The notes beneath the pieces are model-generated. The model saw only the letters and a list, made by a program, of their open reading frames with translations. It was not told the DNA's origin and did no database searches. 52,948 nucleotides of DNA from Acidimicrobiales bacterium (GTDB taxonomy: Bacteria; Patescibacteriota; Minisyncoccia; Phycocordibacterales; UBA918): contig JBLIMJ010000004.1 of assembly GCA_047638595.1 (NCBI GenBank), positions 1-52,948 of the forward strand, given 5' to 3'. Both the position numbers and the translations under genes were made by a program. Below, piece by piece: positions 23,345 to 47,218 of this stretch. The first letter of the stretch is position 1; every line of letters starts with the position of its first letter.

Positions 23345-23584
23345 ATGAAAACATCTACATTTACAAGCACTATTTCACCGCAACTACTTACTTGGATGAC
23401 AAAACATGCTAGTGCAACAAAACAGACACGTCGAGCAATCCTTGAGGAAGCACTCACCAAATACCGCGCAGAAGAAATACGGAAACAGATGCAATCAGAT
23501 TTTAAGCGTACGACTAAAGACAAACAAACATTAGATTTATCAGAATGGGGAATGGATGACTATCATGAAATAGTAACTTCATGA
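23345..23584 (+). CDS. Ribbon-helix-helix antitoxin
   Basis: 79 aa. The N-terminal beta-strand/helix pattern is TFTSTISPQLLTWMTKHA...TRRAILEEAL. Its stop overlaps the toxin start (ATGA). Confidence 0.6.
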   Translation: MKTSTFTSTISPQLLTWMTKHASATKQTRRAILEEALTKYRAEEIRKQMQSDFKRTTKDKQTLDLSEWGMDDYHEIVTS

Positions 23585-23862
23585 TAAAAATTTTGCAAAA
23601 GGACATTTATTGGGCAGATCTAAACTCAACAAAAGGATCTGCGCAATCAGGCAAACGCCCTGTTGTTATCATCTCCGGAAATACAATGAACGAACATCTT
23701 CCTGTATGTATTGTGTGTCCACTTTCAAGTAAGGTAAAAAACTTTTCGACCTGCACTATTCTAGAGAAAACAAACACAAACAAGCTGAAAATTGATTCAG
23801 AAGTTATCACCTTTCAAATACGAACACTATCTCAAAAACGTCTGAGCGAAAAATTGGTATAA
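23581..23862 (+). CDS. MazF/PemK-family toxin, C-terminus apparently frameshifted
   Basis: IYWADLNSTKGSAQSGKRPVVIIS...CPLSS...FQIRTLSQKRL. The expected tail (ERKIGIISDKELQDIITKVGHLFIY*) continues in another frame to 23921. Confidence 0.65.
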   Translation: MIKILQKDIYWADLNSTKGSAQSGKRPVVIISGNTMNEHLPVCIVCPLSSKVKNFSTCTILEKTNTNKLKIDSEVITFQIRTLSQKRLSEKLV

Positions 23863-29572: not shown

Positions 29573-30457
29573 ATGTCAAATCCACAAACCAGAATTGCAG
29601 GAGCGTTATTCATTGGAGCGTTACTTATCTCAAGTGCACTCTTTATACGTTCATGGTCAGTCGAATCTGTCCCCGTTGTACACAACGTTGCTGTAGTGAC
29701 CGCAGCTCCTGAACGAACTGCAATTGCAGTTACTGATAAAAATAATGATGGAGTACCTGACTGGCAGGAAGCTTTGTTAGTAACAGAGGCAATGAATATC
29801 TCTGGGACCACAACTGCCTACACCGCCCCTGAAACTCTGACAGACCAATTTGCGTTAGAATTTTTCGAAGAGATGGTTCGTAACGAAAACTACGGGGAAT
29901 TCGGTGATACACCAGAAGAACTCGTACTACAGACAAGTGAGGCACTCGCGCGTGAAGCAAGAGATGTCCTTCTTGAGGGGAAAGACATTACTATCTCAAG
30001 CAACAACTCTATAGAAGCGCTGAGCCGATATGGAGAAGATGTTGCAATTATTATCGATACGTACTCCACACATGCGACTGAAAACGAGGCGAAGATTCTC
30101 GAGAGAGCACTTCGAGAACAAAGTGCAGAAGGGCTCGTGAAGCTTAATGATAATATAGCCGTATATACAAGCCTTTTAGAAGAAACACAAAAGCTTGCCG
30201 TTCCAGAGGTAATGAAAACTGAACATTTGAACTTACTCAACACCTACCAAGCACTCATCGCAGACATAACTGCCATGCAAACTGCTTTTGAAGATCCAAT
30301 GTATGCATTGTTGCGTCTCAAGCGCTACCAGGATGATGCTGCGGGACTCTATGCTTCTATTGTAAATATGTACACAGCGCTACTGAAGCATGACGCACAA
30401 TGGGACGAAGGGTCAGCTGTCTATTCACTTATTGGTATTAACACAGATAATCAATAG
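29573..30457 (+). CDS. Membrane-anchored hypothetical protein (first ORF of the T4SS-like cluster)
   Basis: N-terminal TM IAGALFIGALLISSALFI, with a helical acidic remainder. No family recognised. Confidence 0.5.
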   Translation: MSNPQTRIAGALFIGALLISSALFIRSWSVESVPVVHNVAVVTAAPERTAIAVTDKNNDGVPDWQEALLVTEAMNISGTTTAYTAPETLTDQFALEFFEEMVRNENYGEFGDTPEELVLQTSEALAREARDVLLEGKDITISSNNSIEALSRYGEDVAIIIDTYSTHATENEAKILERALREQSAEGLVKLNDNIAVYTSLLEETQKLAVPEVMKTEHLNLLNTYQALIADITAMQTAFEDPMYALLRLKRYQDDAAGLYASIVNMYTALLKHDAQWDEGSAVYSLIGINTDNQ

Positions 30458-30460
30458 CGT

Positions 30461-31933
30461 ATGTGGAGTAAATTTTTTAAAGTAATACAAACAAACGTAA
30501 GTGCACTTCTTATGATTGTACTTATGGCAAGCACTATCGCACTCACACCAATGACCCCTCAGGGGGAAGTCCAGAAGGCGGAAGCACTCTTTGGAATTGG
30601 CGATGCAGTTTTTGTTGTTGGAGGGAGCGGTACCATTCAAGAAACACTCAGCGCAGCATCAAACGCAATTACTGCAGGAATCCAAGAAGCATTTTTCATA
30701 AAAGAATTTACACTTGACCCTATCTTTCACGGACTAGCGAAGATGGTTCTCAAAAGCATGACTCAGAGTATCCTTACCTGGATTAACTCAGGATTCCAGG
30801 GGAGCCCAGCGTTTGTAACCGACCTTGGTCAATTCTTGCAAGACGCCGCAGACCAAGTAGTGGGGGACTTCATATACAACGATCCAGCACTCAACTTCCT
30901 ATGTAGTCCATTCCAGCTGGATGTAAAAATTGCTCTTGCTGAAACATACCAGGCGCAAAGCAGCGGGGAAGACTTCGCAAGTGAAGCACAATGTACCTTA
31001 AGCGATGTCACAGATAACGTGGAGGGATTCTTAAATGGGAGTTTCAGTCAAGGAGGTTGGGACAGCTGGTTTGAGGTGACGCAAAACCCTTCTAACACAC
31101 CAACAGGTGCTTACCTTGCAGCTGAGGCAGAGATGCATGCACGAATTGTTAATGAACAAGGGCAGGCTATTAAAGAACTTGACTGGGGTGATGGATTCCT
31201 CTCATTTAAGGTGTGTGACGACACCAATGGTTCAGGGAAAAACTGTAACATCAGCACACCTGGTACTGTTATTGCTAACCAAATCAACAAAACACTTGGT
31301 GCAGGACAAGATGAACTTATTGCAGCTGACGAGGTAAACGAAATCATCAGTGCGCTCTTTGCACAACTTGCGAAACAAGCAATTACAGGAATCAATGGGC
31401 TGCTTGGTCTTGGAGGATCTCAGTACTCAGACAGCTCATTTGGTGACGGTTCACAATCCTACCTTGATGCACTTGGTAACGAGCGAGGAGGGACCAGTGG
31501 GTTAGATCCAATGCTAAAAGCAATAGAAAATGAAGAGGAACATTATGACTTACAACGTGACGTACTTATCATCGTAGCTGGAGCTGAAGCTGACCTTCAG
31601 AAAAACCAAGCTTCAAGCTCCTGTGCCCAGCTACAAAATGTGCGCATGCCACGCGGTTTAGTTACTGCAGGAGAAATCTCTATATTACAACAATTTGTAT
31701 CGTCATCAACTATTGCAGAATTAACCGCCTTGAGTGCGCAATACCAAGATGCTGAGACTCCATCTGAACAATTAGAAATTATTGAAAAGTACAACAAACT
31801 AAAGACTGATGGCGCCTTAAAGACTCAAATTGATAATGTGCGACTAGATCTGTACATCAAAAATGAAATCGCGCAGATGGTAGACAAATTAGAGAATGAT
31901 ATAGACTCTGCAGTGCAGTCCTGCAATAGGTAG
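30461..31933 (+). CDS. Secreted/anchored hypothetical protein
   Basis: N-terminal hydrophobic segment. 490 aa. It starts 4 nt after the previous stop. Confidence 0.5.
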   Translation: MWSKFFKVIQTNVSALLMIVLMASTIALTPMTPQGEVQKAEALFGIGDAVFVVGGSGTIQETLSAASNAITAGIQEAFFIKEFTLDPIFHGLAKMVLKSMTQSILTWINSGFQGSPAFVTDLGQFLQDAADQVVGDFIYNDPALNFLCSPFQLDVKIALAETYQAQSSGEDFASEAQCTLSDVTDNVEGFLNGSFSQGGWDSWFEVTQNPSNTPTGAYLAAEAEMHARIVNEQGQAIKELDWGDGFLSFKVCDDTNGSGKNCNISTPGTVIANQINKTLGAGQDELIAADEVNEIISALFAQLAKQAITGINGLLGLGGSQYSDSSFGDGSQSYLDALGNERGGTSGLDPMLKAIENEEEHYDLQRDVLIIVAGAEADLQKNQASSSCAQLQNVRMPRGLVTAGEISILQQFVSSSTIAELTALSAQYQDAETPSEQLEIIEKYNKLKTDGALKTQIDNVRLDLYIKNEIAQMVDKLENDIDSAVQSCNR

Positions 31934-31943
31934 CAATGCCCGA

Positions 31944-32072
31944 ATGAACAGTGAATTAAAATCAGTAACTGACAATGTACGCCTGGAGTTATATATTAAA
32001 AATGAACTCGCAGCATCAGTAGACAAGTTAGGAAAAGATATGGGGAGTGCTATTACAGCATGTAATATATAA
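31944..32072 (+). pseudogene. Diverged duplicate of the last ~40 codons of ORF 30461-31933
   Basis: MNSELKSVTDNVRLELYIKNELAASVDKLGKDMGSAITACNI* versus the gene end KTQIDNVRLDLYIKNEIAQMVDKLENDIDSAVQSCNR*. Confidence 0.65.
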
Positions 32073-32082
32073 TCGTAAAACT

Positions 32083-32128
32083 GGAAATACAGAAAATGGC
32101 AGCCTTCAGCTGCCATTTTCTGTATTCC
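32083..32128 (+). terminator. Hairpin terminator
   Basis: cagaaaatggcagc-cttca-gctgccattttctg. Confidence 0.6.
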
Positions 32129-32204
32129 TACACACCTCCTTCTCCTGTCAACATGGTGACAAAACAAATTCTTTACTCACTACTCGCGGTACAATAAGAA
32201 AGAT

Positions 32205-34469
32205 ATGGGTATTAAAGTGCACTTGCATAAGTATCTCTTTTTGAGGTTATTCGTGTTTTTTACATGTATTTTATTTCTATCCAATATATTCGCTCCATTC
32301 GCTCAAGCTGATCATGTTGCTGGACATGAACGTGCCCCACTTATAGGTACTCCGGGGGGTGGAACACCAGTTGTTGCTCCTGTTGTCACTCCGGTAGTCC
32401 CCTACGAAGATGCAATAATGCGAGCTGCTAAAAATCCACCTCCTGCTGTTGTTGAGACTATAGGCACCCAACCCTCAGGCTCGGCAAGATTTATTTATGG
32501 AATCTCCCTTGGTATAGGTGGAAAAATTGTTGCCATTGGTGGCCAGCTATTTGACGGTGCAGTCAACCACTTTGTTCGCGGTCTTGGACAATTCTACCTG
32601 GGGCCATTAGGGGGAGCGGTCAACGCCTTATGGGAAATAATACGTGATGTATTCAACATCCTCTTTATTTTTAGCTTAGTGTATATTGGGCTGCGTACCA
32701 TTCTTGACTCCGAAGACTCCGGGACCAAGAAGTTGCTTGGGATGCTCATAGCTGCAGCACTATTGATTAATTTTAGTTTGTATTTTACAAAGGTAATTGT
32801 TGACATATCGAATTTCACTGCAGTTGCTATACACAATACCGCTATTGGTGGTCTGGAAGGAGCTTATTCCGTTACAGGAACATTGATTAAGGTTGAAGAC
32901 AGAAGTATTGCTGGCGCATTTTTGGAAATTGTTGCACTCGGAAGCTGGTTTAACCAAGACTTAGGATCAAAAGAAGAGACACATACCGTCGTATTTTCAA
33001 TCTTCATGCTTTTCTTCCTTGGTCTTACTGGTTTTGTACTTGCGTATGGGGCTCTGATGCTTTTTGCTCGATTCATCGCTATAACTATATACATGATTTT
33101 TTCACCACTAATGTTCTTAGGATGGATTGTTCCTCAGTGGAAAAAGTTTGGCACCAAATGGTGGCAAGGTTTTCTCTCATACTGCTTCTATGCTCCTGCA
33201 TTTATTTTCATGCTATATGTCACCCTCTATGCCCTCGTTCAAATAAAGGAGGGTCTAAAGGACGGTGGTGCAGAAGTTACTTCAGGTAGTGGATTTGCTG
33301 ATTACTTTCTCAACGGAACAGGGTTTAACTCTTTCATACTCTACGCTGTAGGGATTGGGTTTATGTTCGCAGCATTTAGAGTATCAAAAATAATGAGTGA
33401 TGCTGGTGCAGGAAGTTCCATGATGTTTGCAGACAAGATGTCACGTAAACTGACAACAGGAGCTGCTAGGTACGCTGGGGGGAAAGTAGGAGGTGGAGCA
33501 GGAAGAGGTGCGGGTCGGGCATGGTCTGCGTACCGTGGTGGTCAACACCAAGAAACAATAGACAATATAAATGCCAGGGAAAAGAGAACAGGTACATCAA
33601 CTTCGCTAGATCAATGGCGGCGCACACGTGCAGAAGCTGGTATGAAAAAAAATCATATGGGAGCCAGCTCATTCCAAGAAAGAAAAGACACGGGTAAGAC
33701 TGCGGGTGCGCGGGCCGAGACAGCACATAATGCATACAAATCACAACAAGCAATCATTAGTGCTAGCACACCAATTGAGCGCGAAACTGCTGTTGCAAAA
33801 GCAGTGGGTTCTGATCTAGTTGAAATGACGAAGACAAAAGAAGGACGTAAAGCGTTAATTGCAAATGCTGGATCCATTAGTGATGATAAAATGAAGGAGA
33901 TAATGAAGTCCGATGCTTCTCCTGAGATTAAAGATAAGTTGTCTAAAGCAAGGAAGACCCAAGTTTCAGATAATCTTGTCGTGGAACACGGCTCTGGACC
34001 TGGCAGTACTTTGGAAGATGTTATTCACAAGGCAGATTCTTCAGAATTAAAAACCATTGGGTTTGATGTTGCTCATGACAATGCTGCGAGGCTCACTTCA
34101 AAACAAATTGAAGACTGGAAAGACTTAACGCCGACACAAAAAAGATATCTGAAGAAGAAGCGCGCTGATGATTTGGTTGCTGTGTTTAATGGCCATAGTG
34201 GAGGGAGTCCGTCAGCAATATTTAATCAATTTAAAAATGACACTGAAAGATCTAAATTGCCAAAAGATATACTTACGAATTCAAACTCTGTTCAGTATTT
34301 AAATAAAAACATTCTTACAAAGATAGTGGATGATGATGGTATCGAGGATACTGACAGACGACTTATTCGTCAAAATATTGAGGGGGCTTTCCCTGCAGGA
34401 ACCACGCAAGGGGACGAATGGAGAAAGTGGTTTAGCAAGAATAATGCAGGACAACGGTATCCAACATGA
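32205..34469 (+). CDS. TrbL/VirB6-like polytopic T4SS membrane protein with a long basic C-terminal extension
   Basis: Signal-like N-terminus and at least 6 hydrophobic helices (e.g. LWEIIRDVFNILFIFSLVYIGL, LLGMLIAAALLINFSLYF). The pattern and context match TrbL/VirB6. Confidence 0.6.
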   Translation: MGIKVHLHKYLFLRLFVFFTCILFLSNIFAPFAQADHVAGHERAPLIGTPGGGTPVVAPVVTPVVPYEDAIMRAAKNPPPAVVETIGTQPSGSARFIYGISLGIGGKIVAIGGQLFDGAVNHFVRGLGQFYLGPLGGAVNALWEIIRDVFNILFIFSLVYIGLRTILDSEDSGTKKLLGMLIAAALLINFSLYFTKVIVDISNFTAVAIHNTAIGGLEGAYSVTGTLIKVEDRSIAGAFLEIVALGSWFNQDLGSKEETHTVVFSIFMLFFLGLTGFVLAYGALMLFARFIAITIYMIFSPLMFLGWIVPQWKKFGTKWWQGFLSYCFYAPAFIFMLYVTLYALVQIKEGLKDGGAEVTSGSGFADYFLNGTGFNSFILYAVGIGFMFAAFRVSKIMSDAGAGSSMMFADKMSRKLTTGAARYAGGKVGGGAGRGAGRAWSAYRGGQHQETIDNINAREKRTGTSTSLDQWRRTRAEAGMKKNHMGASSFQERKDTGKTAGARAETAHNAYKSQQAIISASTPIERETAVAKAVGSDLVEMTKTKEGRKALIANAGSISDDKMKEIMKSDASPEIKDKLSKARKTQVSDNLVVEHGSGPGSTLEDVIHKADSSELKTIGFDVAHDNAARLTSKQIEDWKDLTPTQKRYLKKKRADDLVAVFNGHSGGSPSAIFNQFKNDTERSKLPKDILTNSNSVQYLNKNILTKIVDDDGIEDTDRRLIRQNIEGAFPAGTTQGDEWRKWFSKNNAGQRYPT

Positions 34470-35449
34470 TAAAAATAACGGAAGAAAACAGAATAGCTAA
34501 ATACCGTGAGGCAGATGAGGTGACTAGGACACTGTACATTAGTGATGTAGTATCTGCGACATTGGAGAAAAAATTTCCCGATTATGACAAGAAGGAAACA
34601 TATCAAATTATTGGCGACACTATTCTCGGATTCTACAAAACAAAAGATTTGCCTATACTACTGCAAACTCAGTTAGATATAACACCTCAACAATCACTAC
34701 AAATCACAAGTGAACTTATAGAATTTCTTAGCCCAGTAGTTGCACGGGAGCAAGCTGAGGTCGAAACTCCTCAGAATGCTGCGCCTCAACAGCAACCCTT
34801 CCAAGCAGCTATGCCCGCAGAAGCGCGGGCGGAGGTTTTTCGAGCTATGGCCGGAGATCCACAGCCAACTGCAATACCTGAGCCTCAAGTAGCTCCTGTT
34901 GCACAGCCTCAGGTTCCTCAGCAACCAACAGTTCCCACAGCTCCTTTACAACCCGTACCCCAACAGGTACAACCTATAGCACAGCCAGTGCCTGTACAAC
35001 CTGTGACACCACAAGCACAGTCCGTACCTCAATCAATACCGACACAGCCCGCAGCACCTCAACAACCTGTTGCACCGCAGACAATTCAGCAACAACCCGT
35101 CACTCCTCCACAGCCTCAGATAGCAATGCAAAGACAACCCGAGCAAGTTGCACAACCTGTTGCATCACAAACACCACCAAACCTTCCTACGCAACAACCA
35201 CAAAGTTTTATCCCGACCCATATCCCCACACAACCAGAACCAGCCCAACAGCCAGCTGCACCTGAGGTATCTGCAGAACCTATTGACCGTATCCATGGAT
35301 ACGGTGCATACCGAGGACAGTATCCTGATTCAGCAGGCGCGCAAGCACACACTGAAGCAATTATCCGCGGTGCATCACAAGACGACCTACTAAAGAGACA
35401 GCCAAAACTTGCTGACATGCCCACATATGTGGAAGATCAGCAGCAATAA
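34466..35449 (+). CDS. P/Q-rich protein (about 200 aa of QP/PQ low complexity)
   Basis: ATGA overlap with the upstream ORF. The globular N-terminal ~100 aa are followed by QPVPQQVQPIAQPVPVQP... tracts. Confidence 0.5.
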   Translation: MIKITEENRIAKYREADEVTRTLYISDVVSATLEKKFPDYDKKETYQIIGDTILGFYKTKDLPILLQTQLDITPQQSLQITSELIEFLSPVVAREQAEVETPQNAAPQQQPFQAAMPAEARAEVFRAMAGDPQPTAIPEPQVAPVAQPQVPQQPTVPTAPLQPVPQQVQPIAQPVPVQPVTPQAQSVPQSIPTQPAAPQQPVAPQTIQQQPVTPPQPQIAMQRQPEQVAQPVASQTPPNLPTQQPQSFIPTHIPTQPEPAQQPAAPEVSAEPIDRIHGYGAYRGQYPDSAGAQAHTEAIIRGASQDDLLKRQPKLADMPTYVEDQQQ

Positions 35450-35451
35450 AA

Positions 35452-35504
35452 GTAGGTTGTATAAAAGACTGTGAGCGTAGCTCACAGTCTTTTATACAAC
35501 CTAC
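35452..35504 (+). terminator. 25-bp perfect hairpin
   Basis: gtaggttgtataaaagactgtgagc-gta-gctcacagtcttttatacaacctac. Confidence 0.6.
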
Positions 35505-35541
35505 ATAGCAAACTCCATCAAAGTCGCGCTATAATACTTAC

Positions 35542-35952
35542 ATGCGATTTGAGGTTCCTCAATTTATCGAAATAGAAGACAAGATCTTCGGTCCTTTTAC
35601 CTGGAGACAATTCATTTACCTTTGTGGGGGAGTGAGTGTTGCGGCTATTACCTTTATAACTATGCATGTGGTTATCTTTTTGATTATAGGAATACCTGTG
35701 GGTGGACTTTCATTTCTTCTTGCATTTTACCCCGTGAACAATAGACCTTTTTCTAAATTCTTAGAGTCTATATTTAACTTTTATCGTTCAGAAAGAATCT
35801 ACAAATGGCGACGGGCAAAACAAAATGTGTACAGAGCTGAAAATCATACCTCTGAAGACCTAATGCCCGTATTAGCACCGAAAAAAAGTCCTGGTGGCAT
35901 CAACTCGCTTGCTCGAGAGTTAGAATTGCGTGCAATGCAAAAAAGTGAATAG
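35542..35952 (+). CDS. PrgI-family (VirB3-like) small T4SS membrane protein
   Basis: N-terminal signature MRFEVPQFIEIEDKIFGPFTWRQFIYL followed by two TM helices. Confidence 0.65.
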   Translation: MRFEVPQFIEIEDKIFGPFTWRQFIYLCGGVSVAAITFITMHVVIFLIIGIPVGGLSFLLAFYPVNNRPFSKFLESIFNFYRSERIYKWRRAKQNVYRAENHTSEDLMPVLAPKKSPGGINSLARELELRAMQKSE

Positions 35953-35962
35953 TTACAACAAT

Positions 35963-36595
35963 ATGGCAACCAAAAAAGAAAAAACAACACAAGATTTCGT
36001 ACCTATTAGAAACATTAAACAAAATGTGGTCATCTTTAAAGATGGGCGCATGTGTAGTGTCCTACTTGCATCATCAGTCAACTTCGCGCTTAAGTCGCTG
36101 GATGAACAACGAGCAATCCTTGGGCAGTTCCAATCTTTTTTAAACACGCTTGATTTTGCGCTACAAATTTACATTCAATCACGTCGCCTTGATATAGAAC
36201 CATACCTTGCACAACTTCGTGAACGTGAACCTATACAAGATAACGATCTGATGCGTATCCAGTTACGTGAGTACATGGGATTTATTAAAACGTTTACCAC
36301 TGAAGTAGATGTGATGAGTAAAAATTTCTTTATTATCATTCCATACTCACCACAAATGGTAGACATAGGGTCAAACATAGGTGCAATGTTCGGAAAAACC
36401 AAGACGGCAACCATCGAAGACTCGAAGTTTGAAGAGTACCGGGTTCAACTTGAACAACGTACGTCTTTGGTAGAACAAGGATTGAACCGGGTAGGGGTGC
36501 GGACTATCGCCCTTGAGGATGAAGCTCTGGTAGAATTGTACTACCACATCTTTAACCCCAGCGACGTCCACAGTTCAGCACCGCACCCTGATTAA
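35963..36595 (+). CDS. T4SS-associated hypothetical protein (reminiscent of a VirB4/TrsE N-terminal domain, no ATPase motifs)
   Basis: QDFVPIRNIKQNVVIFKDGRMCSVLLASSVNFALKSLDEQRAILGQFQSFLNTL pattern, plus its position directly upstream of virB4. Confidence 0.4.
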   Translation: MATKKEKTTQDFVPIRNIKQNVVIFKDGRMCSVLLASSVNFALKSLDEQRAILGQFQSFLNTLDFALQIYIQSRRLDIEPYLAQLREREPIQDNDLMRIQLREYMGFIKTFTTEVDVMSKNFFIIIPYSPQMVDIGSNIGAMFGKTKTATIEDSKFEEYRVQLEQRTSLVEQGLNRVGVRTIALEDEALVELYYHIFNPSDVHSSAPHPD

Positions 36596-36669
36596 GCGGT
36601 ACAATACAAAAGTACTGTATACCTCTTCTTGCATACCGTTGACTAACTTGCGAAAATAAAGAAATACAT

Positions 36670-38481
36670 ATGGGAATTCTTGACTTACTAAAACCAAAAA
36701 ATACAACAACTGCTGAGATAGATGACTTATCTCGAGATATTTCTGATGCTTTGATGACACTTGACGACATCCTCGCGCCTTCAGGTATTGAAGTCAGTCC
36801 ACGCAACATAAACATAAGTGGTACCTATGCGCGGACTTTTTTCACTATCTCGTACCCTCGGTACTTGAACGATGGCTGGTTAGAACCTATTTTAAATATT
36901 GAAAAAGAAATCGATGTTTCTATTTTTATACACCCTATTGACACCGCAGAAACATTGAAGAAATTCCAAAAGAAGGTTGCCGAAGTGCAAAGTCAGATCA
37001 ATGTACGGGCAGAAAAGGGAATGGTACGTGACCCCCAGCTAGAAGCTGCCTTCCGAAACCTTGAAGATCTCCGCGACAAACTACAGCAAGCTGAAGAAAA
37101 ACTGTTTAACGTTGGCATGTATCTTACGGTCTACAGTGCAGACCTCGATTCTTTAAATAAAACTGAACGCGAGATAAAGAGTATCCTCGACTCACGATTG
37201 ATTTATATAAAGCCTGCGCAGTTTGAACAAAAAGAAGGTATTAAAAGTGTTTTGCCTTTCATGGACGATCAACTCCTGGTACACAGCAAATTCAACTCGT
37301 CACCTCTTTCAAGTTTCTTTCCGTTCACTTCTTTTGACCTTACTTCTGACACAGGGATTCTCTACGGTATCAATAGACACAATTCTTCGTTGGTACTTTT
37401 TGATCGTTATCAACTCACCAACTACAATTCAGTTACCTTCGCAACCTCTGGAGCGGGGAAGTCGTACACGACAAAGCTTGAGATACTCCGATCACTCATG
37501 TTTGGTACTGAAGTGATTGTGATTGACCCTGAGAAAGAGTACGAATATCTCGCAGAAGCAACAGGAGGACGATTCTTTAACATCTCTCTTTCTTCTTCTC
37601 ACCACATCAATCCTTTTGACTTACCAAATCCACAAGAAGACGAAAACCCTGAGGATGTATTGCGCTCACACATCATTGAGCTTATCGGACTGTTTCGACT
37701 GATGCTCGGCGGTATCTCACCTGAAGAAGAAACACTCATCGACCAAGCAATTGTGGAAACATATTCACTCAAAGACATCACCGGAACAGCAGACTTTAGC
37801 AACCTCGAATCTCCTCTACTTTCAGACTTTGAGATGGTACTTGCTGGTATGGAAGGAAGTGGTTCACTTGTTTCTCGACTACAAAAGTACACTACCGGTA
37901 CCTGGTCTGGCTTTATGAACAAACCAACCAACGTAGACATACACCAGAAATTTGTAGTCTTTTCTCTACGTGATATGGAGGATGAGCTCAAGACGGTTGC
38001 GATGTACATCATCACACACCATATCTGGGGAGCTATTCGTCGTCGTATCGTAAAACGACTTCTGGTAATTGACGAGGCATGGTGGATGATGAAAAGTGAT
38101 GACACTGCGTCATTCCTCTTCATGCTCGCTAAACGCGGACGAAAGTACTATCTTGGTCTTTCAACCATCACCCAGGACGTTGATGACTTCTTACGGTCCC
38201 CTTACGGTGTGCCGATGATTACAAACTCTTCGTTACAACTTCTGATGAAGCAGTCTCCGACAGCTATTGATAATATTCAAAGTACTTTTAACTTAACCGA
38301 CGAAGAGAAGTTCCTTCTTCTAGAGTCAAACGTGGGGGAAGGAATTTTCTTTGCAGGACTCAAGCATGTCGCTATTCGTGTTATCGCTTCATACACTGAA
38401 GATCAAATCATCACCTCTGACCCTTCACAAATTTTACAAATCCAAAAGGCGCGCGAAGAACTTCGTGATGCACAAACCTAA
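36670..38481 (+). CDS. virB4: VirB4/TrsE-type T4SS ATPase
   Basis: N-domain YARTFFTISYPRYLNDGWL, Walker A FATSGAGKSYT and Walker B RLLVIDEAWWMM. 603 aa. Confidence 0.8.
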   Translation: MGILDLLKPKNTTTAEIDDLSRDISDALMTLDDILAPSGIEVSPRNINISGTYARTFFTISYPRYLNDGWLEPILNIEKEIDVSIFIHPIDTAETLKKFQKKVAEVQSQINVRAEKGMVRDPQLEAAFRNLEDLRDKLQQAEEKLFNVGMYLTVYSADLDSLNKTEREIKSILDSRLIYIKPAQFEQKEGIKSVLPFMDDQLLVHSKFNSSPLSSFFPFTSFDLTSDTGILYGINRHNSSLVLFDRYQLTNYNSVTFATSGAGKSYTTKLEILRSLMFGTEVIVIDPEKEYEYLAEATGGRFFNISLSSSHHINPFDLPNPQEDENPEDVLRSHIIELIGLFRLMLGGISPEEETLIDQAIVETYSLKDITGTADFSNLESPLLSDFEMVLAGMEGSGSLVSRLQKYTTGTWSGFMNKPTNVDIHQKFVVFSLRDMEDELKTVAMYIITHHIWGAIRRRIVKRLLVIDEAWWMMKSDDTASFLFMLAKRGRKYYLGLSTITQDVDDFLRSPYGVPMITNSSLQLLMKQSPTAIDNIQSTFNLTDEEKFLLLESNVGEGIFFAGLKHVAIRVIASYTEDQIITSDPSQILQIQKAREELRDAQT

Positions 38482-38484
38482 TAT

Positions 38485-39156
38485 ATGGCTCAGCCTCAGA
38501 TAGTTGGGAAGCCACAGGTAACAACACAATCAAGAGGTGGGGCAGTTGCTCCTGGCAAATCATCTGTCCGTACCCACCAAGGTGCCCAAAACAAGCCTGC
38601 TAACACTTCAAACATAAGTCATATTGCAGCCAATCGAGGTCATAAAGTAGCACTCAGAAGGAACCGAGATGCTGATGCGGACGATATAAGTCAGTCAGAA
38701 CAAGCACATGAAAAAAGACCTCGGTCACTTCCGCAATCAAAAAAGAGAATGGGGATACGTGCTAAAGGTAATTTTGTAAAAAAGAATGCAAAAAGAATAC
38801 GTGCAGGAAGTGTGGGACTAGGGATTGCTGCGATTCTTTCATGGATCTATATAATACAAATTGCCTTTTTCGTATTATTTATAACAACTTTTTACTATGC
38901 TGACAGTGTAGGATTTATGGGCCAATATATACCTTCAGAACTATTACTGATACTGACCTGGATAATTATTATGCTTATTGGTTTAGGTTCTATGGCCTAT
39001 GCTGCAATGGCTTTTTCTACAGCAGGTGTTGCGTGGCTTGGGATGAATAAGGATTTAATGTTTGGTTTGTTTTGCATACTGTATATATGCCCATTTGTGT
39101 TTGTTGTACCCTGGGTTTTTATTTGGATTTTTGTGGTTACTTACTATCAAAAATAG
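38485..39156 (+). CDS. Membrane protein with a basic disordered N-terminus and about 4 TM helices
   Basis: Hydrophobicity pattern only. It starts 4 nt after virB4. Confidence 0.45.
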   Translation: MAQPQIVGKPQVTTQSRGGAVAPGKSSVRTHQGAQNKPANTSNISHIAANRGHKVALRRNRDADADDISQSEQAHEKRPRSLPQSKKRMGIRAKGNFVKKNAKRIRAGSVGLGIAAILSWIYIIQIAFFVLFITTFYYADSVGFMGQYIPSELLLILTWIIIMLIGLGSMAYAAMAFSTAGVAWLGMNKDLMFGLFCILYICPFVFVVPWVFIWIFVVTYYQK

Positions 39157-39185
39157 AAGGACCTGTATGCTATGCTTTACAATAT

Positions 39186-40166
39186 ATGCGGAACACTTTT
39201 TTACTATTTTTCTTCATTTTAAACATATCTTTCTTTGCATTCCCTGGGGAAGGTACTGCTCAATTCGGTAATCCTATCGATCCCTCTAGTGCATCAACAC
39301 TGGTTTTTTCACCCCGATATCCTGAACCAAATGAACAAATCACTATTGAACTCAATGACTACAGTATCAATACCAGTGGAGCAGCCATCCAATGGTTTAT
39401 AGACGGAACTGAGGAAGTGCTGGTACAGAATGAACGATCGATTTCTATTACCGCTGGGGAACTTGGGAGTAAAACTATTGTCACCGCTATTACAACTCTC
39501 GCCAACGGTTCACGTATTGAAGCTCAAAAAAACATCACTCCAATTCGTATCGATATGCTCATCGAGGCTGACACCCTTGCACCTTCTTTTTATAAAGGAC
39601 GAACCATACCGTCAACTGGAAGCTCCATTCAGGTAACTGCACTGCCATTTACTGGAGTAGACCGCAATCCAGAAACTTTTTCTTATGTATGGCGTGTGGA
39701 TGATAAAGTACAAGGAGGAGGGTCTCGATATGGAAGAAACTCTATTACGTTCACTTCAGGCTTTGAAAAAAATATCTTAGTTTCTGTTGATGTCATCGAT
39801 GATGCAGGGAACATTCTCAGCAGTGAGTCAACCTACATTCCACTAGCAAATCCGGAATTACATTTTTACGAAATAAACCCTCTGCGTGGCATGTCTGAAA
39901 TCGCTATGAACAATGGATTTATCTTTTTAGGAGACGAGATTAAGATACATGCAGTTCCTTATTTTGTAGACAAAAGTCTAGTAACGAACAACCCCCACAT
40001 AGAATGGAAGTTAAATAACCAAACTATTCAAAATCCGAGTACTAACCCCCAAGAAATTACCCTGCGCAAAGAAGGGGACAGTGGTTCGTTTGCTATTGAA
40101 TTCCACATCCGTAACCTACGACAATTATTGCAAGGTGTGAAGGATTCTGTAACTATTAACTTCTAG
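39186..40166 (+). CDS. Secreted hypothetical protein
   Basis: Start moved to MRNTFLLFFFILNISFFAFPGEG (signal peptide). No family recognised. Confidence 0.45.
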   Translation: MRNTFLLFFFILNISFFAFPGEGTAQFGNPIDPSSASTLVFSPRYPEPNEQITIELNDYSINTSGAAIQWFIDGTEEVLVQNERSISITAGELGSKTIVTAITTLANGSRIEAQKNITPIRIDMLIEADTLAPSFYKGRTIPSTGSSIQVTALPFTGVDRNPETFSYVWRVDDKVQGGGSRYGRNSITFTSGFEKNILVSVDVIDDAGNILSSESTYIPLANPELHFYEINPLRGMSEIAMNNGFIFLGDEIKIHAVPYFVDKSLVTNNPHIEWKLNNQTIQNPSTNPQEITLRKEGDSGSFAIEFHIRNLRQLLQGVKDSVTINF

Positions 40167-40170
40167 ATTT

Positions 40171-41256
40171 ATGTATTTTGTTACACTATTTATACTTATT
40201 GGGCTGAGTGTCACACAAATTGTTCTCGCTGCACCAAATGAATTTGTTCCCTTAGTAGGGATTCCGTATTTAGTTGTTCCTCAAGGGGAGGAGTTAGGGC
40301 TTGGTAATTACATAAATGCACTCTACAAGATATCCATCAGTGTTGCAGCATTCTTGGCAGTGGTAAAGATTATTTTTGCAGGAGTGAAGTACATGATCTC
40401 TGACATTGTTCCAACTAAAGAACAAGCGAAGAAAGACATACGCGGGGCACTACTTGGTTTGCTCATTGTCATTGGTGCTGTACTTATTTTGACAACCATC
40501 AACCCTCAGTTAACTGGCTTAGATGCGTTGCAAAAAATACCGGGGTTCAGTGTAAAAACAGGGGCACACGAAGGACGTTCTGCAGATCAAATACGTATAG
40601 AGGAGATGTGTAAATCGAAATTTAAATGTAAAAGAGATGTGTGCGGTTTTATAGATGACTCTATAAATGATACATGTAAAGAAGATTGTGAAAATGACAA
40701 AAATGGTGTTTTTACCCCGTCACTTCTACCAGGAGGTGTTTGTACCTATGCTGGTGAAGACACTGGAACAGCAGCAGAGGGAGACAAGGTACCGTTAAGG
40801 AAGCTTGATGAACTTGCCCAGAGTAGATGTCCAGATAGTATTGAAAAAAGTACATTTGTTATATCAACATCGAATGATGAAAATGCTTCATGTATGTCTG
40901 TAGATGAGGTATTGAAAAAAACAGAAATCAGTTCTGGTAGTCCTGTTGCATTTTCAGTACTCCCATTCACTGATGACGTTATGAGACAGAGTAGGAATTT
41001 TCCACTTAGTAATTTAAAAATTGGTGACGTAATTGGATATCTGAGTTTAGACATAACTTCTGATAAGGGGGCAGAAATATTAAGTGCCTATGATGATGAA
41101 GGGGGCTATGTAGATGCAATTTTAACACCCGCCTGTGGCAAAGGTAACAAAATTATTAGAAAGGAAACTACCACTGGTGAAAGAATTGAAAATTCTTGGT
41201 GGGGTCCTTTTGGGACTACTCAAGAAACTGCACATTACTTTTGTGTGAAAAAATAA
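40171..41256 (+). CDS. VirB2/TrbC-like pilin module fused to a 10-Cys C-terminal domain (paralog 1)
   Basis: Signal peptide ...QIVLA|APNE, then two hydrophobic helices (ISISVAAFLAVVKIIFAG; ALLGLLIVIGAVLILTT), then about 210 aa with 10 Cys. Confidence 0.55.
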   Translation: MYFVTLFILIGLSVTQIVLAAPNEFVPLVGIPYLVVPQGEELGLGNYINALYKISISVAAFLAVVKIIFAGVKYMISDIVPTKEQAKKDIRGALLGLLIVIGAVLILTTINPQLTGLDALQKIPGFSVKTGAHEGRSADQIRIEEMCKSKFKCKRDVCGFIDDSINDTCKEDCENDKNGVFTPSLLPGGVCTYAGEDTGTAAEGDKVPLRKLDELAQSRCPDSIEKSTFVISTSNDENASCMSVDEVLKKTEISSGSPVAFSVLPFTDDVMRQSRNFPLSNLKIGDVIGYLSLDITSDKGAEILSAYDDEGGYVDAILTPACGKGNKIIRKETTTGERIENSWWGPFGTTQETAHYFCVKK

Positions 41257-41316
41257 TATGAATCGATCTATAATTGCAAGGTGTGAAGGATTCTGTAACT
41301 ATTAACTTCTAGATTT

Positions 41317-42393
41317 ATGTATTTTGTTACACTATTTATACTTATTGGGCTGAGTGTCACACAAATTGTTCTCGCTGCACCGAATGAATTTGTTCCCTTA
41401 GTAGGGATTCCGTATTTAGTTGTTCCTCAAGGGGAGGAGTTAGGGCTTGGTAATTATATAAATGCACTCTATAAGATATCCATCAGTGTTGCTGCATTCT
41501 TGGCAGTAGTAAAGATTATTTTTGCTGGAGTGAAGTACATGATCTCTGACATTGTTCCAACTAAAGAACAAGCAAAGAAAGACATACGTGGTGCACTACT
41601 TGGCTTACTCATTGTCATTGGTGCTGTACTTATTTTGACAACCATCAACCCTCAGTTAACTGGCTTAGATGCGTTGCAAAAAATACCGGGGTTCAGTGTA
41701 AAAACAGGGGCACACGAAGGACGTTCTGCAGATCAAATACGTATAGAGGAGATGTGTAAATCCACGTTTGGTTGCTCTAAAGATGTGTGCGGTTTTGTAG
41801 ATGACTCTATATATGATACATGTAAAGAAGATTGTGAAAATGACAAAAATGGTGTTTTTACCCCGTCACTTCTACCAGGAGGCGTTTGTACCTATGTTGG
41901 TAACGAAAGAGAAAATTCAGGGGACGATCTGGAATTACGCTTTCTTGGTACAATTTCTGAGGATAAATGTGTAGGTACTGATGAAGGGAAGATATACACC
42001 CTGGCAACAGCTGGTGAAGTCACTTCTTCATGTATGTCCACAGACGAAATAGCAAGACAAATAGAATTGGATTCTGGTGCTCCTATTGTATTTTCAATAT
42101 TGCCAATTACCCGCGCGGTGGATACGCATACCCGGGAAAGGTCGATTTTTAGTACAGGACTAGACGATCTTGAAGTTGACAACATGGTTGGATTATTACG
42201 ATTAGATTCAAGTTCAGAACAAGGTAAAAAAATGTTAGAAGATAAAGGTGGAAGAAGTCAATTTATAGAAGATGTCTTACAGCCAGCTTGCGGTGAGGTT
42301 AGTGAAGGTTATAAAATAATCGATTACAATACTAACGAACGTGTAGGATATGACAACCATAGGATAATACATTTTTACTGTATAAAAGAGTAA
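41317..42393 (+). CDS. VirB2/TrbC-like pilin module fused to a 10-Cys C-terminal domain (paralog 2)
   Basis: The first 148 aa are identical to paralog 1. The C-terminal domain is strongly diverged, but all 10 Cys are retained. Confidence 0.55.
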   Translation: MYFVTLFILIGLSVTQIVLAAPNEFVPLVGIPYLVVPQGEELGLGNYINALYKISISVAAFLAVVKIIFAGVKYMISDIVPTKEQAKKDIRGALLGLLIVIGAVLILTTINPQLTGLDALQKIPGFSVKTGAHEGRSADQIRIEEMCKSTFGCSKDVCGFVDDSIYDTCKEDCENDKNGVFTPSLLPGGVCTYVGNERENSGDDLELRFLGTISEDKCVGTDEGKIYTLATAGEVTSSCMSTDEIARQIELDSGAPIVFSILPITRAVDTHTRERSIFSTGLDDLEVDNMVGLLRLDSSSEQGKKMLEDKGGRSQFIEDVLQPACGEVSEGYKIIDYNTNERVGYDNHRIIHFYCIKE

Positions 42394-42456
42394 AATTTTT
42401 ACTGTTTATAGCACTTCCTTTATAATGCATCTTAATAAGTTATACTTAAAATACTT

Positions 42457-43644
42457 ATGAATCGATCTATAATAATAACCACTGGAATCATAATTCTCCT
42501 ACTTGTATTAGGGGTATGGATATACTTGATGTTTTTTGGAGCACCAGAAAATAAAGAGGAGGTCTTTACCAATTTTGGTTTCAGGATACAACCTCAAGAG
42601 GTAACTATCATCCCTGACACCAATACAGGCAATGTCAGTCCTCTGGTGGACACTCAAACAGATGCCTTAAGACAACTCACCACTCGCCCTGTTGCAGGGT
42701 TTGCGTTTGCCTCAACATCTGAAGGAGAAGCGGTTCGCTATGTTGAAAGAGGGACGGGGCATATATATGAAATCAATCTCGCTACTGGTGTAGAAAGTGC
42801 TCTTTCACGAACAACCATCCCTCAAGTAAACGAAGCAGTTTTCTCCCATGACGCGGAGGTGGTGGCACTCATTTCTCATGAAAGATACCAGTCAGAAGTT
42901 TTCGTAGGTACTCTAGGCAACAATATAAACCTTACTGGTATCAGCCTCCAGCCAAACGCTTCAAATATCTCATTTACCTTAGAGAATGAGGTGCAGTACA
43001 CAATTGCTGCAAATGGCACCACCAAAGGATACCGACACAACATCGATACTTTAGTGCAAACAGAATTGTTTTCCATGAACTACACAAACCTCGACGTCGG
43101 GTGGGGCAATGGTTTAGAAAAAATCTTTTTAGCAACCAAGCCAGCGCAAGGATTTGAAGGTTTTATGTATACTATTGAGAATAACATCCTGACACCTGTG
43201 GCTTTTTCTGCACAAGGACTATCCGCTCTCTTTACAAACACATACATTCTTACCTCTTTCATCCAAGGAGATACTTACAGCTCTGCGGTGGTTACTACTG
43301 CTACACAAGAAAGACTAGAACTTCCAATTTTAGCGCTTAAGGAAAAATGTGTACCAGATACAACTGATGAATTCTTAATATGGTGTGCTGCGTCACTAAA
43401 TAACCAACCTGCTACATTTGGGGAAGATTGGTATAAAGGAACTGTAATTTCAGAAGACTCCATTTGGCTCATAGATCCCTTAGCACAAACGGCAGATGTC
43501 TATGCAAACCTTGGGAGCTTATCTGGCAGAACCATAGATGTAAAAGAAATAGACATGAACACAAAAGGAACCTTGCTCTCATTTGTTAATAAGGCCGATC
43601 AAACCCTTTGGCTCTATGACATCTTTGCCGATATCAAGTTCTAA
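42457..43644 (+). CDS. Membrane-anchored hypothetical protein (possibly beta-propeller-like)
   Basis: N-terminal TM IIITTGIIILLLVLGVWIYLMFF. The segment RYVERGTGHIYEINLATG is PD40/TolB-like. Assignment is weak. Confidence 0.4.
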   Translation: MNRSIIITTGIIILLLVLGVWIYLMFFGAPENKEEVFTNFGFRIQPQEVTIIPDTNTGNVSPLVDTQTDALRQLTTRPVAGFAFASTSEGEAVRYVERGTGHIYEINLATGVESALSRTTIPQVNEAVFSHDAEVVALISHERYQSEVFVGTLGNNINLTGISLQPNASNISFTLENEVQYTIAANGTTKGYRHNIDTLVQTELFSMNYTNLDVGWGNGLEKIFLATKPAQGFEGFMYTIENNILTPVAFSAQGLSALFTNTYILTSFIQGDTYSSAVVTTATQERLELPILALKEKCVPDTTDEFLIWCAASLNNQPATFGEDWYKGTVISEDSIWLIDPLAQTADVYANLGSLSGRTIDVKEIDMNTKGTLLSFVNKADQTLWLYDIFADIKF

Positions 43645-43692: not shown

Positions 43693-43730
43693 TAAAACTC
43701 TCTATATCATTAATGATATAGAGAGTTTTA
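43693..43730 (+). terminator. 38-bp perfect palindrome closing the T4SS-like cluster
   Basis: taaaactctctatatcatt / aatgatatagagagtttta. Confidence 0.6.
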
Positions 43731-45096: not shown

Positions 45097-45246
45097 TTAT
45101 TTACTCTTTTGTACCGTCAACTGTGAGCGTCCTTTACGACGACGTGCTCGAAGAATACGTGCCCCGGTCTTTGTTGCAGCGCGCACCAAAAAACCATGAG
45201 TGGTCATTCTTTTCTGTTGACTTGGTTGATATGTTCTCTTTGGCAT
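45097..45246 (-). CDS. rpmH: 50S ribosomal protein L34
   Basis: Not in the ORF track because it is under 60 aa. Hand translation gives [49 protein letters not shown]. Confidence 0.9.
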
Positions 45247-45356
45247 ATTTAGAAAATTACGAAGGCAACTATACACTTATTCTTGTTTTTTTTCAATAGC
45301 TGGAGCAGAGGGGAGTAAAGGTTTTTAAGAAAATGTAATTTAAAAGTTATACATTG

Positions 45357-45365
45357 TTATCCACA
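45357..45365 (+). promoter_or_regulatory. Perfect consensus DnaA box TTATCCACA in the rpmH-dnaA intergenic region
   Basis: Exact 9-mer about 125 nt upstream of the likely dnaA start. Confidence 0.7.
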
Positions 45366-45489
45366 GGATATACACAAGGGGTGGGGGTTGCCAAAAAAAA
45401 CACTAATGACTACTGAAGCTAATACGAAAAGAGTTTACAGTTTCTCAGACACAGGTATAATGGCTTTCACTAAGTTCCGAATTACGTAT

Positions 45490-46872
45490 ATGAATCCATT
45501 ATCTCATCCTTCCACAAACAGTATTGTCCACACTGAACAAATTGATGTTAAAAAGCTCTGGGATGATGCGTTGGTTACTATTGAACTCTCCATCACTCCT
45601 GCAAACTTTAAGACATGGTTCCGGGACACTTATATTGTTTCACTAGAAGATGGGACTATCACTCTCGGTGTACCAAGTGTGTTTGTACGCGACTGGCTAT
45701 CAGACAAGTTTCAGTCAATGACTCTAAAAACACTCCGTGAACTCACACCACATGTACGAAGTATTGAATACGCAGTAGTACAACGAAACGACAAGAAAAA
45801 AGAGGCGAGCAAACCACAAACAGTAAACGCGGCACTACCGCTTGAGGAGTACTACATAAATAAGAGTGACAATCTTAATCCGAAATATACTTTTGATACA
45901 TTTGTTGTTGGTCCTTTTAACGCACTTGCACACACTGCTGCAAAGACTGTTAGTGAGAAGCCAGGTATCGCATACAACCCACTATTTATTTATGGAAAAA
46001 CCGGTCATGGTAAAACACACCTTATCCAAGCAGTAGGGAACTACCTAAAACGACAAGGGAAAAAAGTTTTTTATGTAACCAGCGAACGGTTTACTGTTGA
46101 CTACTTCAACAGCCTTCAGAGTGGGACTGCAAATAGTTTTAAAGATAAGTATCGTCAGTACGATGTACTTATCATGGACGATGTACAATTTCTTGCTAAC
46201 AAAGAAAAGACACAAGAGGAACTATTTCATCTTTTCAACGCGCTGCATGACTACAACAAGCAAATTGTATTCTCAAGTGATATACACCCAGCCCTTCTTT
46301 CAGGACTTGAAGAACGACTACAGTCTCGTTTTGCTCAAGGAATGATCGTAGATATTCCCGCACCTGATATGGAATCTCGTGCAGCAATCTTGCGAGCAAA
46401 GACAGCTCAAAACGGTCTTCATTTAAGTGAAGATGTGGTTGAACATCTTTCAAAGACTATTGAAGGTAATATCCGTGAACTCGAAGGAGCACTCAACACC
46501 ATAATGTGCCAGTCACAGCTTATGGGACGAACACTTTCACTTGATGAAGTAAAACAAATTATCAAAAACAGCACCCGTCCTCGAAAGACACTCGCAGTAA
46601 GTGACGTGGTTGATAAAGTTGCACGATACTTTGATATAGACCCTTCTTCAATTTACGAAAAAACACGACGGAAAGAAATTGTAAAACCACGACAGTTGAT
46701 TATGTATATCCTGCGACAAGACTTTCAAGTATCTTATCCTGCAATTGGACAAAAACTTGGGGGAAGAGACCACACAACTGTCATCCACTCTTGTGAGAAG
46801 ATTAAGAATCAACTCAAAGATGATAATGATCTTGAGGAAGAGATAACTCAGATTAGACTTCTTCTTAAATAA
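45490..46872 (+). CDS. dnaA: Chromosomal replication initiator DnaA
   Basis: Walker A GKTGHGKTHL, Walker B VLIMDDVQFL and C-terminal DNA-binding signature GGRDHTTVIHSCEKI. The start is uncertain; an alternative upstream start lies at 45388. Confidence 0.9.
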   Translation: MNPLSHPSTNSIVHTEQIDVKKLWDDALVTIELSITPANFKTWFRDTYIVSLEDGTITLGVPSVFVRDWLSDKFQSMTLKTLRELTPHVRSIEYAVVQRNDKKKEASKPQTVNAALPLEEYYINKSDNLNPKYTFDTFVVGPFNALAHTAAKTVSEKPGIAYNPLFIYGKTGHGKTHLIQAVGNYLKRQGKKVFYVTSERFTVDYFNSLQSGTANSFKDKYRQYDVLIMDDVQFLANKEKTQEELFHLFNALHDYNKQIVFSSDIHPALLSGLEERLQSRFAQGMIVDIPAPDMESRAAILRAKTAQNGLHLSEDVVEHLSKTIEGNIRELEGALNTIMCQSQLMGRTLSLDEVKQIIKNSTRPRKTLAVSDVVDKVARYFDIDPSSIYEKTRRKEIVKPRQLIMYILRQDFQVSYPAIGQKLGGRDHTTVIHSCEKIKNQLKDDNDLEEEITQIRLLLK

Positions 46873-46874
46873 AG

Positions 46875-46901
46875 AAAAAACTGTCCCAAGGACAGTTTTT
46901 T
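46875..46901 (+). terminator. dnaA terminator
   Basis: aaaaaactgtcc-caa-ggacagtttttt. Confidence 0.7.
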
Positions 46902-46903
46902 CT

Positions 46904-47218
46904 TTATACACATAACCTGTGTATAAGTTGTGTGTATGTACCTGGTTAACCGCAGTAGTAATGTTGAGTAACAGTGTATAAAATAGAGAAGTTCTGTTAA
47001 GAAGTTATTGAACAACAGTGCATAAAGTAAAAGTAATCCCCAGAAAAAATAAGCGTGCCACTTGTCCACTTCTTTATACACAAAAGATATACTAGTTACC
47101 CACACGATATTAAAAATATTTCACTTAAATAAGATATATAATAGGCCACAGATTTGAGATTTCCACTAATGCACACCCTTAATAATAAGAGTAGAATAGA
47201 TAAAATAAAAAAATAATT
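46904..47218. promoter_or_regulatory. Probable oriC (DnaA-box cluster plus AT-rich unwinding region) between dnaA and dnaN
   Basis: TTATACACA at 46904. Inverted TGTGTATAA at 46918. TTGTCCACT at 47062. TTATACACA at 47074. TTACCCACA at 47096. A strongly AT-rich stretch spans 47105-47218. Confidence 0.65.

Follow-up and report, generated by a model that had tools for sequence, protein, structure and literature searches.

A chromosomal, origin-proximal type IV secretion system locus of the Patescibacteria type with tandem pilins that diverge in their C-terminal extensions

Twelve open reading frames (ORFs) between positions 29573 and 43644 of contig JBLIMJ010000004.1 (assembly GCA_047638595.1) encode parts of a type IV secretion system (T4SS) next to the chromosomal replication genes, and raise the question of whether the locus is a conjugative element or an inherited surface machine, and what such a machine would do. 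A first-pass annotation of the same 52,948-nt stretch of DNA (hereinafter the window) had proposed a chromosomal T4SS-derived machine rather than a conjugative element. We find that the locus is very probably a chromosomal, inherited, origin-proximal Patescibacteria T4SS that resembles the mating-pair formation class FATA (MPF-FATA) and has an epibiotic role, not a role in conjugation. Synteny, matching G+C content (GC) and the lack of mobility genes in the window all speak for the earlier interpretation, which is nevertheless not new because the locus matches a published Patescibacteria system: that system was described in 2023–2025, and the window holds a clean and complete example of its Paceibacteria layout rather than a new system.

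All twelve ORFs lie on the + strand, starting at 29573, 30461, 32205, 34466, 35542, 35963, 36670, 38485, 39186, 40171, 41317 and 42457. The tight packing described at first pass is present at every coordinate, with a stop at 30457 followed by a start at 30461, a 4-nt ATGA overlap at 34466–34469, and further junctions at 38481/38485 and 40166/40171. For comparison we used the best 80 genome loci by VirB4 match (labelled L001, L064, L075, L081 and so on), in which the presence of each cluster and flank protein was counted by tblastn.

The ATPase of the machine (36670..38481, 603 aa) is a VirB4 of the MPF-FATA type. It matches the NCBIfam CD1110-family model NF045971 above its cutoff (E = 9e-108, 361.5 bits against 325, model positions 165–732) as well as Pfam P-loop_TraG (1e-26), and carries the expected Walker A motif SGAGKSYT at aa 260 (nt 37447–37470) and Walker B motif LLVIDEAW at aa 464 (nt 38059–38082), in agreement with the original call. 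The preceding ORF (35963..36595, 210 aa), one of seven that had been left without a family, matches the TrsD/TraD model NF041427 at 3.7e-6, under the curated cutoff, and two VirB4 models, NF045975 VirB4_plasma (1.7e-11, positions 98–265) and NF045971 (positions 2–118); its L081 orthologue matches the TraC-like family PF26593. Judged by these profile matches, ORF 35963 is the TrsD-like N-terminal part of VirB4, made as a polypeptide of its own. A frameshift or pseudogene origin of the split is ruled out by the 78 related loci in which TrsD is a separate ORF of 193–225 aa, with a VirB4 of ~600 aa throughout. The split is ancestral, since those 78 loci keep the separate ORF and thousands of VirB4 relatives are full-length at ~600 aa.

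The membrane components are recognized with graded strength. A 136-aa PrgI/VirB3-like protein with two transmembrane (TM) segments (35542..35952) matches Pfam PF12666 with E = 2.6e-11 and 44.3 bits, above the gathering score (GA) of 27; its N-terminus VPQFIEIEDKIFGPFTWRQF, on which the first-pass annotation had based the same name, is present and begins at aa 5, and the protein is detected in 77 of the 80 loci. The extended VirB6/TrbL-like polytopic membrane protein (32205..34469, 754 aa) contains about seven hydrophobic segments followed by a long hydrophilic C-terminal region. Its own NCBIfam matches, to CD3337/EF1877 (4e-4) and pLS20_p028 (3.7e-3), are sub-threshold, and a profile search against PDB sequences returned no match, while eight of 29 positional orthologues match Pfam TrbL PF04610 (best 2e-8). 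The ORF is therefore counted as a putative VirB6 through orthology, its own scores being below threshold, and the TrbL/VirB6 label given earlier holds for the orthologues but not for the window protein taken alone. The same division applies to the two VirB2/TrbC-like pilins named at first pass. Pilin 1 (40171..41256, 361 aa; PF18895 2.8e-4, NF045849 1e-5) and its tandem paralogue pilin 2 (41317..42393, 358 aa; 65% overall identity) reach 21.3 bits on PF18895, under its GA of 26.6, whereas 29 of 31 positional orthologues match that family (best 9.5e-11) and four match TrbC.

The cluster sits between core genes. To its left lie pcrA (26586) and ksgA/rsmA (28631; PF00398), and to its right yidC (43875, −; PF02096), rnpA (44700, −), rpmH (45097–45276, −), dnaA (45388) and dnaN (47219); the gene map and the Pfam matches thus confirm the core-gene borders noted before. 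The window VirB4 is 67–90% identical to proteins of Paceibacteria metagenome-assembled genomes, and relatives with 67–88% identity occur in at least 80 species-level genomes, all of them metagenome bins. Those titles among the 80 loci that name a lineage all name Patescibacteria, mostly of the Paceibacteria/Parcubacteria type (Kaiser-, Nomura-, Taylor-, Campbell- and Adlerbacteria), and about 10 read merely 'bacterium' or 'uncultured bacterium'; as a proxy, this strongly suggests that the VirB4 belongs to the monophyletic Patescibacteria clade. The comparison with related genomes places the cluster at the same core-gene junction: in nearly every related locus with enough flank, the left half reads M23(−)-pcrA-ksgA followed by 29573-30461-VirB6-(P/Q protein)-PrgI-TrsD-VirB4, and the right half continues from VirB4 with (membrane protein)-39186-pilin(s)-42457 followed by yidC(−)-rnpA(−)-dnaA-dnaN. 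The sole variation in order is an exchange of the pilin and 42457 in some loci. L081, the closest relative found (VirB4 89% identical), has an identical gene map except for one pilin instead of two.

This arrangement bears directly on whether the cluster is an integrative and conjugative element (ICE) or what is left of one after decay, with the relaxase, coupling protein and integrase encoded beyond the window or no longer present. Some features would suit such an origin: conjugative-transposon ATPases are typical of the family into which the VirB4 falls (NF045971 CD1110), the set of components is like that of Gram-positive conjugation systems, and a relaxase is reported for 103 of 3,035 Patescibacteria genomes in the main text of a recent survey (PMC12102498). 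The same gene order between ksgA and yidC-rnpA-dnaA nevertheless recurs in dozens of distinct species, the cluster GC (0.417) equals that of the flanks (0.423 and 0.390), and all cluster genes are intact and tightly packed. Neither tRNA nor Rfam scans found an RNA gene in or beside the cluster, and no integrase and no att-like or direct-repeat boundary adjoins it. Conserved core-gene synteny, flank-like GC and the lack of an adjoining tRNA or Rfam element together indicate an inherited core locus rather than an integrated one. The synteny largely refutes an ICE, and an ICE or other genomic island was rejected on synteny, GC and absent boundaries taken together; we consider this origin hardly credible, and conjugation by the cluster very unlikely.

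The gene content of the window is in keeping with an inherited locus. Pfam and NCBIfam scans of its larger ORFs found no relaxase, coupling protein (T4CP), VirB11 or recombinase domain, which bears out the earlier statement that no relaxase, VirD4/TraG-type ATPase, VirB11 or recombinase is encoded in the 53 kb; for the coupling protein, this absence applies to the window only. Apart from housekeeping functions, the other large ORFs encode just a MazF toxin and a LysM-M23 peptidase. ORF 8645–9703 (352 aa), which adjoins a tRNA-Arg gene (8358–8430, −), contains six 'integrase repeat units' (PF14882, 1.7e-39) and no recombinase catalytic domain.

What has been published on Patescibacteria allows the locus to be placed more closely. 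In the main text of Quinonero-Coronel et al. 2025 (PMC12102498), 3,035 Patescibacteria genomes are surveyed and VirB4 is found in 2,417, most of these proteins forming a monophyletic clade nested in MPF-FATA. TrsD, PrgI/VirB3, VirB6 and VirB2-like pilins are described there near virB4, with the relaxase absent from most clusters and VirD4-like genes present in 2,918 of the 3,035 genomes, for the most part at a great distance from virB4; for Paceibacteria and Microgenomatia, the locus is placed near dnaA, dnaN, rnpA, ksgA and rpmH. As far as that text and the Southlakia epibionticum locus SEML1_0006-0019 (PMC10633639) describe the clade, the window agrees with it in having the same VirB4, separate TrsD, PrgI/VirB3, VirB6 and VirB2-like pilins, in being chromosomal with no relaxase or T4CP beside virB4, and in its Paceibacteria neighbours dnaA, dnaN, rnpA, rpmH and ksgA. 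It departs from the VirB2 arrays reported in the survey's main text, which share at most 54% identity, in that its pilin pair is 65% identical with an identical 149-aa N-terminus.

The components amount to the core of a minimal monoderm machine, and the cluster shares with the conjugative MPF-FATA systems known from monoderms (pGO1/pSK41 Trs, pCF10 Prg, CTn2 CD1110-type and Mycoplasma ICE) a CD1110-family VirB4 and PrgI. The separation of TrsD from VirB4 matches pGO1, the VirB6-like protein shows its weak matches to Gram-positive CD3337/EF1877 and pLS20_p028, and the pilin weakly matches the Mycoplasma ICE pilin-like protein Mbov_0395. Unlike those systems, the cluster lacks a relaxase, a T4CP, a PrgK/TraG-type VirB1 hydrolase and a recognizable PrgL/VirB8; it has VirB2-like pilins, which are normally absent from Gram-positive systems, and it is not on a mobile element. 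A LysM-M23 peptidoglycan peptidase (25171..26238, −; PF01551 7.6e-30, LysM 1.5e-21) occupies the same place upstream of pcrA-ksgA in relatives, and may be either a surrogate for the missing VirB1-type wall hydrolase or a housekeeping enzyme. VirB1-like proteins with M23 and LysM domains are noted in the main text of the survey (PMC12102498).

The two pilins differ from one another in a particular way. Each consists of a signal peptide, a two-helix pilin module (aa ~20–122) and an extension of ~240 aa with 10 Cys. The first 149 aa are identical in the two proteins and the C-terminal module has diverged: at the DNA level, identity is 96–100% from 40124, 47 nt before the start codon, to ~40750 and then drops abruptly to ~50%. 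Codons 1–149 contain 12 synonymous and no nonsynonymous differences between the copies. The duplication is therefore not brand-new, and the pilin module is either under strong constraint or homogenized, and the differences between the C-terminal modules resemble an exchange of cassettes. Tandem duplicated, diverged pilin genes are also found in the VirB2 arrays of Bartonella and Anaplasma, a likeness that suggests variation of a host-facing surface; unlike in those arrays, the pilin module here is constant (0 nonsynonymous in 149 codons) and the variation lies in the appended globular domain.

Of 64 positional pilin orthologues, 43 carry an extension that is 100 aa or longer (median 6 Cys). 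Similarity between extensions is detectable in only 7 of 990 pairs, while the VirB4 proteins of those loci are 67–90% identical; in L081, the pilin module is 68% identical to that of the window and the extension is unrelated, against 89% identity in VirB4. The extension of window pilin 1 has no Pfam or PDB-sequence match and no relative among the 80 loci. A VanY D-Ala-D-Ala carboxypeptidase domain, scoring above its gathering threshold (1.2e-9), makes up the extension in L075 (13044–14111), and that in L064 (15389–16363) has a weak CHAP match. We tentatively suggest, as a possibility that we hold with more doubt than confidence, that the VirB2-like pilins are modular fusions of a conserved pilin module with an extracellular 'payload' that is hypervariable and rich in disulfides and, in some relatives, consists of a peptidoglycan hydrolase. 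Term searches of the survey's main text (PMC12102498) turned up no reference to pilin extensions, and these hypervariable extra domains are the one lead that we did not find in the 2023–2025 descriptions of the system, as far as their main text goes.

The hydrolase domains also bear on whether the machine exports proteins (effectors or hydrolases) to the surface or the interior of the host cell in the manner of effector-translocating T4SSs. Protein export was raised as an option by Wang et al. (PMC10633639), because relaxase and T4CP were not recognized, and the occurrence of a peptidoglycan hydrolase as the pilin extension in relatives (VanY in L075, weakly CHAP in L064) means that lytic domains would be delivered with the pilus itself. 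The window, however, contains no effector candidate and no T4CP-type substrate receptor, and the known exporters that work without a T4CP (Ptl, Brucella VirB) all come from diderm bacteria, so that a dedicated protein exporter seems to us unlikely.

The proteins that had been left as orphans make up much of the rest of the cluster. Apart from ORF 35963, which is TrsD, their status stands: four (29573, 30461, 39186 and 42457) are conserved yet cannot be assigned, and two (34466 and 38485) are fast-evolving. Naming them by Pfam and NCBIfam, using the window proteins and 29 orthologues of each, was tried and yielded just incidental TSP3, Ig-like and F5/8-C surface domains. The first protein of the cluster (29573..30457, 294 aa) combines a TM helix at the N-terminus with a DxDxDG (TSP3-like) motif (aa 55–64) and an extracellular helical bundle; it is found at the same position in 33 of the 80 loci, a count limited by the flank length retrieved, and Pfam TSP3_bac is matched by 3 of 29 orthologues. 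A profile search against PDB sequences gave no match for it. Its AlphaFold2 (AF2) model has a predicted local distance difference test (pLDDT) score of 85.6, with a best Foldseek PDB E-value of 0.085, to generic 4-helix bundles.

In the second protein (30461..31933, 490 aa), a TM helix at the N-terminus is followed by an all-alpha core, which includes conserved Cys, and by a coiled coil at the C-terminus. The protein contains the near-invariant motifs W-INSGFQGSPAFV, FLCSPF and ADEINEI, is detected in 55 of the 80 loci, and carries Ig-like or F5/8-type-C inserts in some orthologues. The family to which it belongs numbers 5,732 representatives at 50% identity (E<=1e-3), 2,765 of them at E<=1e-30, in a profile search where names were inspected among the 150 closest matches listed. 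No Pfam or NCBIfam model and no PDB sequence in a profile search matched it, and its AF2 model has a pLDDT of 73.6. For neither this model nor that of 29573 did Foldseek find a PDB match at E<=0.001. The best 50 Foldseek matches listed for each protein were all generic helical proteins; no T4SS component, and thus no solved VirB8 (NTF2-fold), PrgL, TraM, TcpC or VirB5 structure, was among them.

Between VirB6 and PrgI lies a proline- and glutamine-rich (P/Q-rich) protein (34466..35449, 327 aa; 32% P+Q, no TM segment) without a Pfam or NCBIfam match, which is conserved over its N-terminal ~100 aa only and found by tblastn in 11 of the 80 loci at 28% coverage. A fast-evolving membrane protein of 223 aa follows virB4 (38485..39156), with a strongly basic hydrophilic N-terminal part (pI 11.9) and then 3–4 TM segments. 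Sequence similarity to it is detectable in only 2 of the 80 loci, yet in most close relatives (L001–L030) the slot after virB4 holds a protein of the same architecture, with an N-terminal part of pI >9 in 25 of 29 followed by 2–5 TM segments; the basic part might serve as a tail in the cytoplasm for binding the ATPase or nucleic acid. The pilins are flanked by two further proteins. One is secreted (39186..40166, 326 aa; present in 75 of the 80 loci) and consists of a signal peptide and a beta-rich immunoglobulin-like (Ig-like) region; the other (42457..43644, 395 aa; present in 67) has an N-terminal TM anchor and a beta-propeller-like ectodomain. The former matches the Ig domains of T4 Hoc at 3.4e-4 in a profile search against PDB sequences and, weakly, Pfam Ig_3; by eye, its Ig-like region reads as about three ~100-aa repeats. 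For the latter, the same kind of search gave TolB/WD-like matches that are not significant (E 0.004–0.1), and its ectodomain is possibly a beta-propeller. Altogether we count five conserved accessory proteins without an assignable fold or family, and the main-text sections of the survey (PMC12102498) contain no discussion of the five unnamed accessory proteins.

The position of the locus relative to the origin can be specified from the DNA. The origin region (45276..47219) has a low GC of 0.35–0.36 and contains one perfect DnaA box at 45357, in the rpmH-dnaA spacer, and four one-mismatch boxes at 46904–47104, in the AT-rich dnaA-dnaN spacer, which places oriC 1.7–3.4 kb beyond the cluster end. 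Transcription of the 14-kb cluster runs toward the DnaA boxes and, if oriC lies there, head-on to the leftward replication fork; related loci have the same transcription direction relative to the origin region. A hairpin with a 17-bp stem (43693..43730), 3' of the last cluster gene and facing the convergent yidC, is probably a bidirectional terminator. The 92 nt that separate the P/Q-rich ORF from prgI contain a second hairpin-forming palindrome (35455..35501; 20-bp stem), which could act as a terminator inside the cluster, an attenuator or a processing site. A promoter scan is uninformative because it returned the same count as shuffled sequence.

Three further features of the window lie away from the cluster. 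A 1,039-aa Pro/Lys-rich protein (18251–21370) contains an exact internal repeat of ~76 aa in two copies (KKEIPPPPKIVSIPKKDD...QLSVVPKK) as well as a TM segment around aa 830; no family matches it, and its one weak relative, in L028, adjoins comM. Just downstream of comM in the window, at 23345–23862, a small ORF whose stop overlaps the start of a PemK/MazF-family toxin (PF02452, 2e-22) probably forms a type II toxin-antitoxin pair with it. At 6937–7398, an ORF of 153 aa that looks secreted has a long low-complexity tail of (PA)n/(PG)n at its end.

How would an inherited T4SS of this kind work? The components, the chromosomal inheritance, the proximity to the origin and the absence of mobility genes are shown; the mechanism beyond them is what we infer by analogy with characterized T4SSs and from the published work cited here. 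TrsD and VirB4 would dock on a membrane platform of PrgI and VirB6. The pilin precursors would be inserted by Sec and cleaved near VLA|AP, and the ATPase would pull the pilins from the membrane and polymerize them into a tube across the thin wall. The helical bundle of 29573, together with 30461, the Ig-like protein 39186 and the propeller of 42457, would provide extracellular and wall-spanning parts, and the Cys-rich pilin extensions would lie on the outer pilus surface, touching the host envelope. The machine would thereby serve an epibiotic lifestyle through contact-dependent exchange of macromolecules with a host cell, with import of host nucleic acid or other macromolecules as the direction that we prefer over effector export. 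Transposon sequencing (Tn-seq) by Wang et al. 2023 (PMC10633639) found T4SS and pilin genes essential, and comEC dispensable, for epibiotic growth of the saccharibacterium S. epibionticum. In a cultivated strain that acquires host RNA, tubular structures that may be T4SS pili are reported where parasite and host meet (2026 preprint, bioRxiv 10.64898/2026.06.21.733656).

Import could in principle also be the work of a T4SS dedicated to DNA uptake (competence), on the lines of H. pylori ComB or archaeal Ced, with DNA as the nucleotide source. ComB and Ced likewise have no relaxase, Patescibacteria are unable to make nucleotides de novo, import of DNA or other macromolecules is proposed in the main text of the survey (PMC12102498), and the window VirB4 has a weak match to CedB (1.7e-9). 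That match, however, reaches 36.9 bits where the cutoff is 700, and the one to CedD 15.1 where it is 600, so that the protein does not show the character of a CedB/CedD-type ATPase, and no CedA-like or ComB-specific component was recognized. Natural transformation of S. epibionticum proceeds via type IV pili (T4P) and ComEC, with comEC dispensable and the T4SS essential (PMC10633639), and the molecule acquired according to the 2026 preprint is host RNA, not DNA. A machine dedicated to DNA uptake is accordingly given only a slim chance here.

Several points weigh against the favoured reading, that of an inherited T4SS with an epibiotic role. No Paceibacteria T4SS has a demonstrated function. 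A T4CP or relaxase may be encoded elsewhere in the genome, the window being 53 kb only. Taken alone, the window VirB6 and pilins each fall under the Pfam thresholds, and no VirB8-like or VirB1-like component is identifiable within the cluster. A pilin with a C-terminal domain of ~240 aa may not polymerize at all, and could instead be a surface protein that a pilin-like anchor holds in the membrane.

The Patescibacteria T4SS, which lacks the conjugation proteins, is at present regarded as a key part of the life of these ultrasmall bacteria on other cells, and is essential in the one species tested. One accessory family of the machine, that of 30461, comprises more than 5,000 cluster representatives and has no Pfam name. 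If the pilins are indeed modular fusions, the T4SS pilus would be a display scaffold for host-recognizing or wall-breaching domains that diversify like cassettes and, together with five accessory proteins without a detectable homologue in characterized T4SSs, would point to an uncharacterized extracellular architecture of a monoderm T4SS. The fast-diversifying C-terminal domains of the pilins are good candidates for determinants of host specificity.

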